Assembly: GCA_040879685.1 (NCBI GenBank)
Contig: JBBDJW010000002.1
Coordinates: 1-39,189 of the forward strand
Origin: Minisyncoccota bacterium
GTDB lineage: Bacteria; Patescibacteriota; Minisyncoccia; Phycocordibacterales; UBA2135
DNA: 39,189 bases
Direction: 5' to 3'
The notes under the pieces were generated by a model that was given only the letters and a program-made list of their open reading frames with translations, was not told where the DNA came from and made no database searches. Shown here piece after piece: positions 1-19,149 of this stretch; position 1 is the stretch's first letter; the number at the start of each line of letters is the position of its first letter. The translations under genes were made by a program, and so were the position numbers.

Positions 1-1
1 G

Positions 2-42
2 CTGCCGGACTTGGACTCGAACCAAGATTACAGGTACCAGAG
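2..42 (-). other. 3' portion of a second, interrupted tRNA-Gln-like copy, running to the window edge. It carries loop CTCTGGT, ACCTG, TAAT, T-arm CTTGG/TTCGAGT/CCAAG, acceptor 3' strand TCCGGCA and discriminator G.
   Basis: The reverse complement aligns base for base with the 3' half of the intact tRNA-Gln at 99-169. The T-stem is self-consistent. The acceptor strand is complementary to TGCCGGA at 283-289. Confidence 0.5.
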
Positions 43-98
43 ACCCCGCCTGACACAAGAGGCGAGGAATCTGCCTTTTTCCTTATTCCCGCACAGTG

Positions 99-169
99 CT
101 GCCAGACTAGGATTCGAACCTAGATTACAGGTGCCAGAAACCTGAGTCCTACCATTAGACGATCTGGCA
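99..169 (-). tRNA. tRNA-Gln (anticodon CTG), 71 nt, no encoded CCA
   Basis: The manual cloverleaf on the minus strand is TGCCAGA TC GTCT AATGGT AGGAC T CAGGT TTCTGGC ACCTG TAAT CTAGG TTCGAAT CCTAG TCTGGCA G. U1:A72 and G73 are typical of bacterial tRNA-Gln. Confidence 0.9.
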
Positions 170-237
170 GCACTGCGCATGAATTATCGAAAAATTCCCT
201 TTGGGAACCGGATGAAAAAGAAAACTGATTCTTTCTC

Positions 238-289
238 ATTCCTACCATTAGCCTCGCCCATAGGGCTACGGACGAAGGACGATCCGGCA
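238..289 (-). other. 5' portion of the interrupted tRNA-Gln-like copy (acceptor TGCCGGA and D-arm), with a 27-nt insert in the D-loop
   Basis: The minus strand reads TGCCGGA TC GTC [27 nt, + strand 251-277] TAATGGTAGGAAT. Apart from the insert and 2 substitutions it matches the first 26 nt of the intact tRNA-Gln. The acceptor G:C change is compensated in the 3' piece at 3-9. Confidence 0.5.
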
Positions 290-9592: not shown

Positions 9593-10270
9593 ATGACTGA
9601 AAAAAAACTAGAAGAGAGAAAGAAAAAAGCGCGGCGTCTTGTTGATGCGCTTAAAAAGGTCTGCCCCGATGCAGGGATGACACTTCACTTTAGGACTAAT
9701 TGGGAACTCCTTGTTGCTGTGATGCTCTCTGCGCAGTGTACGGATAAAAAAGTTAATGAGGTGACACGGCGACTTTTTTCCGCCAAAGGCGGACCCGCCT
9801 CAGGCGGGAAAAAGTTCAGAACAATTGATGATTTCGTTAATGCCCGTCAGGAGCATCTTGAAAAAATTATTAAGCCGTGTGGATTTTATCATACTAAAGC
9901 GCGGAATATCAAAAAAAGCGCGCGCATCATACAAGAAACATATAACGGGCGTGTCCCTAAAACAATGGAAGAACTTGTCACTTTGCCCGGCGTGGCGCGC
10001 AAAACGGCAAATGTTGTTTTGGGAAATGCGTATGGCGTTATCTCAGGAATCGCGGTTGATACACACGTTATGCGACTTTCCCGTCGCTTTGGGTTAACGA
10101 ATAAAAAAACACCGGAGCAGATTGAGCGCGATTTAATGGAAATTATCCCCCAAAAAGAATGGTTTCACCTCACCTCTCTTTTTATTGAATACGGAAGAAG
10201 GTATTGTCCCGCACGCGGATGTCCGAGGGAGCATCCGCTGTGGCGTTTTGATCTATCTTCCGGTAGCTGA
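9593..10270 (+). CDS. nth: Endonuclease III (Nth) family HhH-GPD DNA glycosylase
   Basis: HhH motif LPGVARKTANVVLG and catalytic-region motif VDTHV. The C-terminus has only 2 Cys. Confidence 0.85.
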   Translation: MTEKKLEERKKKARRLVDALKKVCPDAGMTLHFRTNWELLVAVMLSAQCTDKKVNEVTRRLFSAKGGPASGGKKFRTIDDFVNARQEHLEKIIKPCGFYHTKARNIKKSARIIQETYNGRVPKTMEELVTLPGVARKTANVVLGNAYGVISGIAVDTHVMRLSRRFGLTNKKTPEQIERDLMEIIPQKEWFHLTSLFIEYGRRYCPARGCPREHPLWRFDLSSGS

Positions 10271-18871: not shown

Positions 18872-18941
18872 GGAGGAGTGGCTGACCACCTCCTTTGGCG
18901 GGGCCTCGCCGTAGGCGAGGGTGGTCTAAGGCGCACGCTTG
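18872..18941 (+). other. 5' portion of an interrupted (outer) tRNA-Ser-like gene, with a 37-nt D-loop insert
   Basis: GGAGGAGTGGCTGA + 37 nt (18886-18922) + GGTCTAAGGCGCACGCTTG. Apart from the insert it is identical to nt 1-35 of the intact tRNA-Ser at 19001. Confidence 0.55.
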
Positions 18942-19000
18942 TTCCCAATTTACACAAGAGCGAAGCGATTGTAATGTAAATTGCAATCCCTGCACATGGC

Positions 19001-19090
19001 GGAGGAGTGGCTGAGCGGTCTAAGGCGCACGCTTGGAAAGCGTGTGAGGGTTTACGCCCTCCGCGAGTTCGAATCTCGCCTCCTCCGCCA
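19001..19090 (+). tRNA. tRNA-Ser (anticodon GGA), class II with a long variable arm, CCA encoded
   Basis: Cloverleaf: GGAGGAG TG GCT GAGCGGTCTAA GGC G CACGC TTGGAAA GCGTG, variable arm TGAGGGTTTACGCCCTC C, GCGAG TTCGAAT CTCGC, CTCCTCC G CCA. Confidence 0.92.
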
Positions 19091-19099
19091 TGTGCAGGA

Positions 19100-19149
19100 G
19101 AAAGCGTGTGGGGTTCATACCCTCGCAGGTTCAAATCCTGTCTCCTCCA
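19100..19149 (+). other. 3' portion of the interrupted (outer) tRNA-Ser-like gene
   Basis: GAAA GCGTG, variable arm TGGGGTTCATACCCTC, T-arm GCAGG TTCAAAT CCTGT, acceptor CTCCTCC, discriminator A. It is complementary to the 5' portion at 18872-18941. Confidence 0.55.

Follow-up and report, generated by a model that had tools for sequence, protein, structure and literature searches.

GC-rich hairpins in the D-loops of split tRNA genes of a Patescibacteria genome: probable relics of small GIY-YIG/hairpin cassettes

Single-domain GIY-YIG nucleases of the Ssn type (SsnA of Neisseria meningitidis; cd10448) cut single-stranded DNA (ssDNA) at flanking SRM/NTS hairpin repeats, and tRNA goes unmentioned in the paper that describes them (PMC11893778). 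SegB of phages T4 and T6 is a free-standing GIY-YIG homing endonuclease encoded in tRNA gene clusters, where cutting within the tRNA region promotes transmission of the nuclease gene and, in T6, causes tRNA segments to be amplified in tandem (PMC2330249, PMC13096335). Here we describe GC-rich hairpins lodged in the D-loops of two split tRNA genes, a tRNA-Ser(GGA) and a tRNA-Gln(CTG), in a 39,189-nucleotide (nt) stretch of DNA (the window), which is contig C2 of a 531-kb Patescibacteria assembly. Each split gene encloses a complete tRNA gene with the same anticodon, so that an outer and an inner copy can be told apart at both loci. The hairpins probably derive from small selfish cassettes that pair a DNA palindrome with a very small GIY-YIG nuclease gene. 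They were compared across 401 genomes of the same order (relatives are labelled G###, contigs C## and loci L###). In the literature, no description was found of hairpin-plus-mini-nuclease cassettes inside tRNA genes.

At the tRNA-Ser locus (18872-19149, plus strand; Table 1) the outer gene is interrupted by one insert in the D-loop and by another in the anticodon. When both are removed, by joining 18872-18885, 18921-18941 and 19100-19149, ARAGORN recovers a perfect 85-nt tRNA-Ser(gga), whose 3' part encodes no CCA. The D-loop insert is 35 nt long (18886-18920) and lies between A14 and G15. The first-pass annotation of this DNA had given it 37 nt and a closing pair CCAC/GTGG, but the GTGG at 18921-24 is the tRNA's own G15-G18, and the same place in relatives reads GA/GTGG or GA/GCGG. 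That annotation had also seen a single hairpin here. The hairpin in question (hairpin B) is present, but an imperfect one with a single T.C mismatch (hairpin A, 18886-18903) had been overlooked, and the insert is double. The inner tRNA-Ser(GGA) at 19001-19090 is the sole intact gene with its anticodon in the assembly. Nests homologous to the 158-nt anticodon insert include those of G005, G055, G076, G023, G033 and G104. G104 has exactly the architecture of the window with no open reading frame (ORF), and G023 has the same architecture with a GIY-YIG ORF retained. The outer copies degrade in relatives: that of G055 has a truncated 3' half, and G033 and G072 contain remnants stacked on one another.

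The D-loop insert belongs to a dispersed family. A covariance model, R1, was built from five copies of the tRNA-Ser module, of which the window copy is one, and the score of the window module, 56.6 bits (E 2e-10), is thus that of a sequence among the five used for building. R1 detects the module in 14 of the 401 genomes, among them G090 with at least 16 copies, G174 with about nine and G255 with about five; the window genome has one full copy, one half copy and one related copy. Copies 84-86% identical to the window module are joined to tRNA-Ser 5' ends in relatives, and wherever the module sits in a tRNA-Ser gene, for the isoacceptors GGA, UGA and GCU alike, it occupies the one site A14/G15 of a copy that is redundant, either a fragment or an outer gene. 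Its consensus, CCACCGCC-loop-GGCGGGG/CCYCGCC-loop-GGCGRTGG, consists of four alternating versions of one 7-8-mer, so that it has two-fold palindromic symmetry and is scored by R1 on either strand. The loop of hairpin B reads GTA, ATA, AAA, GAA, TTC or AGA in different copies; loops vary freely across the family, and the shared GTAG loop start remarked on earlier is therefore not conserved.

Stem covariation was scored over about 390 cells in an alignment of 28 module copies, not all of them mutually independent. C-G alternates with T-A at six of the stem pairs, and only a single G.T was encountered. A long-range pairing of arm 1 with arm 4 was ruled out by many C.A mismatches. As far as the alignment goes, it is two local hairpins that are conserved in the module, and the swaps between Watson-Crick pairs, together with the near-absence of G.T, point to selection on a DNA hairpin and not on RNA.

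The connection with nuclease genes comes from the relatives. In at least six of them (G023, G051:C7, G005, G174:C5, G200 and G044) a module of 35-36 nt precedes the start of a GIY-YIG ORF by a few to about 45 nt; in G174:C5 and G044 the module stands on both flanks of the gene. These module-linked ORFs encode 79-83 amino acids (aa) in G023 and G174 and extend up to or into the intact tRNA copy; in G051:C18 and G247 there are ORF-less tandem remnants in which the ORF has shrunk to a few codons. PF01541 was matched over its cut-off in six genomes, among them that of the window (86 aa on C19 and a decayed copy on C7), by open frames 80-116 aa long. The mini GIY-YIG proteins, of 79-92 aa, are almost wholly covered by the 78-position GIY-YIG profile. 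No NCBIfam family matched them over its cut-off, and their nearest relatives of solved structure are the UPF0213 proteins 1YWL (E 1e-6) and 1ZG2 (E 1e-4). When the neighbourhoods of 20 such genes sampled from four relatives were surveyed, 13 had a tRNA within 400 nt, and for about 10 a tRNA piece and a GC-rich palindrome could be read just upstream, with stem sequences specific to the lineage. An automatic scan for perfect stems reported a palindrome at 13 of the 20, two of these being merely the T-arm of the adjacent tRNA.

Related modules occur elsewhere in the window genome. On C7, nt 1-14 of a tRNA-Ser(GCU) are followed by a half-module, CCACCACCTTTGGCGGGG, which is the hairpin A half standing alone, then by a GIY-YIG gene interrupted by a TAA and finally by an intact tRNA. 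This gene (C7:363-599, minus strand) is a decaying copy, its single in-frame TAA standing at a codon that is Leu in relatives, in contrast to the intact 86-aa gene on C19 (C19:8059-7847). On C19 a 30-nt double hairpin, TCAGCC-TAA-GGCTGA/CCAGCC-TAT-GGCTGG, lies in the D-loops of three tRNA-Ala fragments, and similar modules lie in the D-loops of fragments of tRNA-Val (C9) and tRNA-Gly (C12). A module also lies in the D-loop of a tRNA-Ile fragment (C8). A further double hairpin of this build, 30 nt long with two perfect 6-bp stems and a weak R1 match (E 0.26), falls within the nth gene of the window and is translated as SAKGGPASGG. A palindromic DNA element accounts for the odd Gly-rich insert of the endonuclease III. 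In a crude test of all GC-rich perfect hairpins, 12 of 142 lay near tRNAs, against 4.2% of the genome, an excess of about two-fold; the tRNA enrichment is specific to (double) hairpins of the form YCNGCC-N3-GGCNGR.

Taken together, these data make it probable, in our judgment, that the D-loop hairpins are DNA palindromes from small selfish GIY-YIG/hairpin cassettes lodged in Patescibacteria tRNA genes. The suggestion of the first-pass annotation that they represent a small insertion element or a protein recognition module is upheld to the extent that the palindrome is dispersed, is physically linked to GIY-YIG genes in at least six relatives and, as a half-module, adjoins such a gene in the window genome. 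In full, a cassette would open with the 5' fragment of a tRNA, whose D-loop holds a GC-rich (double) hairpin in its 5' half; the remainder of the D-arm, a GIY-YIG gene of about 80 aa and an intact tRNA would follow. Of this, the outer tRNA-Ser(GGA) would retain only the 35-nt double hairpin at A14/G15. Recombination between the repeated D-arm segments may have removed the nuclease gene together with the duplicated 5' segment, and a deletion between the two D-arm copies of a G023-like state would yield exactly the outer tRNA-Ser of the window. Because modules also occur alone, it is equally possible that the module landed here by itself. At the matching place the outer tRNA-Gln would carry a hairpin that has decayed and that represents a second family. 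Both outer genes are, to judge from their sequences, most likely dead, and each is also split by a larger insert that brought a working inner tRNA, so that the hairpins would be orphan relics without a present RNA role; that every hairpin-bearing copy encloses or adjoins an intact tRNA of the same anticodon makes an intron or processing role unlikely. By analogy with Ssn, the hairpin could have been a handle that the mini nuclease recognised in ssDNA and cut beside, and repair of the break from a cassette-bearing copy would have spread the cassette.

The tRNA-Gln locus (1-289, minus strand) differs from this picture in several respects. The sequences and positions first given for the three hairpins of the window are confirmed; the hairpins lie at 18904-18920 on the plus strand and at 278-252 and 67-44 on the minus strand. 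Two of the three are in D-loops, those of tRNA-Ser and tRNA-Gln; the third, at 67-44, is not in a D-loop and lies at the right junction between the inner insert and the 3' part of the outer tRNA-Gln. With R1 run on the window with filters off, neither tRNA-Gln hairpin was detected even at E<=10, and the idea that all three hairpins form one family was dropped on this ground. What remains of the shared module proposed earlier is a likeness of arms and placement: there are at least two hairpin families, judged by their sequences, sharing only the arms CCTCG.CC/GG.CGAGG, and the tRNA-Gln D-loop hairpin is best placed in the second. It has a twin, CCTCGGTCATAGCCCCACGGGCGAGG, at C8:25790-25815, in the D-loop of a tRNA-Ile 5' fragment upstream of an intact gene. 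The pattern TAGCCCNNNGGGCGAGG, searched with 1 mismatch in the 401 genomes, matched at about the rate of its reversed control, many of the matches being the variable arm of tRNA-Tyr, and only exact or near-exact matches were retained. These further copies, in G319, G305 and G070, lie outside tRNAs with no nuclease gene nearby, that of G070 apparently, from its flanks, within a P-type ATPase gene. Of the 11 pairs of the 27-nt hairpin of the window, 4 are G.T, which suggests a decaying DNA palindrome, and pairing is complete only if G.U is allowed.

Nested tRNA-Gln loci are also found in G099, G008, G072 and G033, where the outer D-loops are intact and have no hairpin, and the third hairpin is absent from the equivalent junction in G099, G008 and G072. 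The intact D-loops of the relatives indicate that both tRNA-Gln hairpins are later additions in the lineage of the window. No homologue of the third hairpin was identified. The start of C2 is identical to the end of C4 over 55 nt (window 1-55 = C4:34877-34931), which indicates that the assembly breaks within the nested tRNA-Gln locus; on C4 the 3' end of the outer tRNA-Gln reads ...GGCAGCCA, and the gene downstream of it is located there. A tRNA-Lys(ctt) called by ARAGORN at 1-93 (minus strand) is false, being assembled from the 3' part of the outer tRNA-Gln and the third hairpin, and has no Rfam support.

Several observations weigh against derivation of the hairpins from nuclease cassettes. 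There is no GIY-YIG gene within or adjoining either window locus, so that the nuclease link of the window copies rests on homology and on the relatives, and to the failure of R1 to find the tRNA-Gln hairpins can be added that the tRNA-Gln-type hairpin never adjoins a GIY-YIG gene at the copies inspected, those of G319, G305 and G070 included. The modules of G090 form the centre of a longer repeat that is distant from tRNAs and nuclease genes, and copies of the module also lie in frame within protein genes, both of which indicate that the palindrome can spread without the ORF. Moreover, the outer tRNA-Ser is flawless once its inserts are taken away, as would fit a recent disruption and would also be compatible with removal at the RNA level. 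A rival explanation is that of autonomous palindromes of the repetitive extragenic palindrome (REP) or miniature inverted-repeat transposable element (MITE) kind, moved in trans by another enzyme or by replication slippage and accumulating in dead tRNA copies where their insertion is neutral; adjacency to GIY-YIG genes would then be secondary. The G090 copies, the in-frame copy in the nth gene of the window and the apparent one in the P-type ATPase gene of G070, and the lack of a nuclease neighbour for the tRNA-Gln type at the copies inspected all favour this explanation, and Y1-transposase-like genes are common in these genomes. We nevertheless regard it as unlikely, because neutral accumulation does not predict one exact site in three tRNA-Ser isoacceptors or a position directly before the GIY-YIG start in at least six genomes. 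In addition, the Y1 gene of the window genome (C3:2188-2859) is flanked by an AT-rich TGTTCAAC...GTTGAACA hairpin and not by GC-rich modules, and an explanation by RAYT proteins and REP was rejected because this gene has a different cognate hairpin.

An RNA-level role, whether as an intron-like D-loop insert or as a protein or RNase III handle for a composite outer-plus-inner transcript, is very improbable. The perfect cloverleaf of the outer tRNA-Ser after removal of both inserts and the G.U needed for complete pairing of the tRNA-Gln hairpin would be in keeping with it, as would the folding of the loci, which is much better than that of shuffled sequence (z -8.7 and -6.4). Against it, each outer copy holds the only intact gene for its anticodon and is therefore redundant, the outer copies are decaying in G055, G033 and G072, the outer tRNA-Gln D-loops of relatives lack hairpins, the covariation of the family avoids G.T, and the same module occurs inside protein genes. 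Rfam, screened both at the gathering cut-off and at E<=1, yielded only the intact inner tRNAs and sub-threshold noise; group I and other intron families were excluded by the absence of any intron match. The RNase III handle and the non-canonical intron offered by the first-pass annotation thus find no support here. Little credence can likewise be given to chance likeness among unrelated GC-rich stems, for example terminator-like ones, that share CCTCGCC/GGCGRGG arms. Such stems with T-runs do exist (C7:7397, C5:114544 and C15:3888), the third hairpin is without an identified homologue, and the pattern first used to relate the hairpins had been fitted post hoc; searched genome-wide, that pattern occurs at four places in 531 kb, three of them in the two loci and one terminator-like (a stem with a T-run). 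An unfitted scan for the arms CCTCGCC/GGCGAGG with <=2 mismatches, however, gave 42 strand matches against about 16 in Markov-simulated genomes, and no T-run follows any of the three window hairpins. The tRNA-Ser module matches R1, as a member of its own model, at the score given above; independently of that, the tRNA site which it occupies carries copies 84-86% identical to it in other genomes. The tRNA-Gln hairpin is matched by its twin on C8, likewise in a D-loop. A chance origin is possible only for the hairpin at 44-67, being refuted for the two that lie in D-loops.

If the hairpins do stem from nuclease cassettes, their closest counterpart would be Ssn. Both pair a hairpin inverted repeat of 20-50 nt with the adjacent gene for a GIY-YIG protein that has a single domain and measures about 80-95 aa, and the repeat-gene-repeat layout resembles a mobile element. 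The cassettes described here differ in lodging their hairpin in the D-loop of a duplicated tRNA piece and rebuilding an intact tRNA, and many of their modules are two tandem hairpins with two-fold symmetry. Dispersal of the repeat may be a further likeness: the module is multi-copy in some genomes, but the 16 or more modules of G090 do not adjoin its GIY-YIG genes, and the window genome has only one full copy. The likeness of the mini nucleases to Ssn is one of size, domain and layout; their nearest solved relatives are of UPF0213.

SegB resembles the present system in having its GIY-YIG gene beside tRNA genes, and the tandem tRNA-fragment units of G051, C19 and C9 recall the amplification seen in T6. 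The frequency of tRNAs within 400 nt of the mini genes (13 of 20) and the patchy distribution of the module (14 of 401 genomes) are further points of likeness. SegB is, however, a phage protein, whereas the proteins here are bare domains of about 80 aa in bacterial chromosomes, without separate DNA-binding domains (79-92 aa, all of it GIY-YIG profile). SegB has extra DNA-binding parts, and to our knowledge no hairpin module has been described for it. The insertions here also lie inside the tRNA gene, in the D-loop, with a duplicated 5' piece.

REP sequences and bacterial interspersed mosaic elements (BIMEs) with their RAYT (Y1) proteins, and the ends of IS200/IS605 elements, are likewise short, GC-rich, imperfect dispersed palindromes, often paired, that nucleases recognise as ssDNA hairpins, a recognition that may by analogy hold here too. 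The linked gene in the present case encodes a GIY-YIG protein and not a Y1 transposase, the Y1_Tnp gene at C3:2188-2859 has TGTTCAAC-type AT-rich hairpins as its flanks, and no Y1 gene lies within 5 kb of a module in G090. No conserved GTAG/CTAC tetranucleotide of the kind that stands beside the REP stem is found here, the module loops being variable. Rickettsia palindromic elements are reportedly palindromic selfish DNA that a reduced genome tolerates both in RNA genes and, in frame, in protein genes (described by Ogata et al. in 2000); they measure about 100-150 nt, and we know of no preference of theirs for tRNA D-loops and of no nuclease gene linked to them. The modules here are similarly in frame in nth and present in tRNA D-loops, and differ in being only 26-36 nt long. 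From tRNA introns, whether group I introns of the anticodon loop or archaeal bulge-helix-bulge introns, the window loci differ in that the interrupted copies are not the working gene for their anticodon. The window elements would thus be a new variation on the Ssn/REP kind of element, with a cutting mechanism suggested by analogy.

Should the nuclease-cassette origin be correct, Patescibacteria tRNA genes would harbour selfish cassettes of very small size, made up of a DNA hairpin and a nuclease of about 80 residues, and the window would record their leftovers: orphan hairpins in the D-loops of tRNA copies since replaced by nested incoming tRNA genes. A bolder proposal, which we find rather doubtful but worth stating, is that the handle and the bare GIY-YIG protein of about 80 aa form an autonomous, undescribed mini mobile cassette that homes to tRNA D-loops and rebuilds its target, and that the two tRNA genes of the window, already marked in this way, were later overwritten by incoming elements bearing a replacement tRNA with a covarying extended acceptor helix; the nested genes would then reflect serial tRNA replacement by selfish DNA in ultra-small bacteria. 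Such loci matter for annotation, since they cause false or missed tRNA calls such as the tRNA-Lys at 1-93, and they bear on the turnover of essential RNA genes in tiny genomes. In-frame entry of the palindrome would account for odd Gly/Pro/Ala-rich inserts in proteins such as endonuclease III. Hairpin-defined ssDNA cutting by Ssn-type nucleases has practical appeal, and nuclease/hairpin pairs with differing specificities may be numerous in these genomes.

Table 1. Coordinates of the split tRNA loci and of a related double hairpin in the window.
Feature	Position	Strand	Sequence or remark	Basis
Outer tRNA-Ser(GGA), nt 1-14	18872..18885	+	GGAGGAGTGGCTGA	ARAGORN on rejoined parts
Hairpin A of the 35-nt D-loop module	18886..18903	+	CCACCTCC-TTT-GGCGGGG	R1 and family alignment
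Hairpin B of the module	18904..18920	+	CCTCGCC-GTA-GGCGAGG; perfect 7-bp stem	R1 and family alignment
Outer tRNA-Ser, nt 15-34	18921..18941	+	GTGGTCTAAGGCGCACGCTTG; ends at G34 of anticodon	
Anticodon insert of outer tRNA-Ser, 158 nt	18942..19099	+	between G34 and G35	
Dispersed core, about 48 nt	18942-18989	+	TTCCCAATTT...GCAATCCC; left end of anticodon insert	
Acceptor-helix extension, 11 bp	18990-19000 pairing with 19087-19097	+	flanks of inner tRNA-Ser	
Intact inner tRNA-Ser(GGA)	19001-19090	+	inside the 158-nt insert	
3' part of outer tRNA-Ser, from nt 35 onward	19100..19149	+	GAAAGCG...CTCCTCCA	
Outer tRNA-Gln(CTG), nt 1-11	279..289	-	TGCCGGATCGT	
Hairpin insert, 27 nt	252..278	-	CCTTCGTCCGTAGCCCTATGGGCGAGG; 5' edge of outer tRNA-Gln D-loop	
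Remainder of outer tRNA-Gln D-arm	240..251	-	CTAATGGTAGGA; inner-tRNA element starts after it	
Intact inner tRNA-Gln(CTG)	98..169	-	sole gene for its anticodon in this assembly	
Third hairpin	44..67	-	CCTCGCC-TCTTGTGTCA-GGCGGGG; right junction, inner-tRNA element/outer tRNA-Gln 3' part	
Outer tRNA-Gln 3' part	1..46	-	anticodon loop CTCTGGT, T-arm, acceptor strand; continues into contig C4	
Double hairpin in endonuclease III gene (nth)	9779..9808	+	TCCGCC-AAA-GGCGGA/CCCGCC-TCA-GGCGGG; in frame	

The nesting itself, in the manner of a Russian doll, places a complete tRNA within a split outer copy of the same anticodon, the split falling at G34/G35 in tRNA-Ser and at about nt 24/29 in tRNA-Gln. 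The same nests occur in seven relatives for tRNA-Ser and in four for tRNA-Gln, and nesting is triple or deeper in G033 (L007) and G072 (L051). The T-arm of the outer tRNA-Ser of the window matches that of the inner tRNA of G055, and the T-arm of the inner tRNA-Ser matches that of G023, which suggests from sequence that tRNA alleles move between lineages. The acceptor stems of both inner tRNAs are lengthened by 8-11 bp through their flanks (18990-19000/19087-19097 for tRNA-Ser; 170-181/87-97, minus strand, for tRNA-Gln). The sequences of this extension differ among relatives yet remain complementary (ACACAAATC/GATTTGTGT; ATGTTCAATGC/GCATTGAACAT in G072), and the extended acceptor helix is, on this comparison, a conserved structural feature of what appears to be an inner-tRNA element.

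The core of about 48 nt at the left end of the tRNA-Ser anticodon insert (TTCCCRATTT-N3-CAAGAGCGAAGCGATTG-N4-6-AAATCGCAAT, 18942-18989) is a dispersed element in its own right, near-identical copies of which lie away from tRNAs at L033 (G076:C4) and L036 (G084:C21), one of them apparently within a protein gene. On C13, a tRNA-like gene at 921-1010 has good acceptor and T arms and about 40 extra nt replacing the anticodon arm, and further along, at 1684-1857, a heavily decayed GIY-YIG frame (three TGA and one TAA) follows 23S rRNA-like sequence. An AT-rich hairpin, AAGCTGTTCAACATTGGATGTTGAACAGCTT, lies at 2023-2053 of the window (plus strand), just past a Pif1-like helicase gene, and is of the same type as the TGTTCAAC hairpins. 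Hairpins of this AT-rich type and the Y1-transposase-like (RAYT/IS200-type) gene that they flank in the region C3:2100-2900 make up a second, separate pair of hairpin and enzyme.

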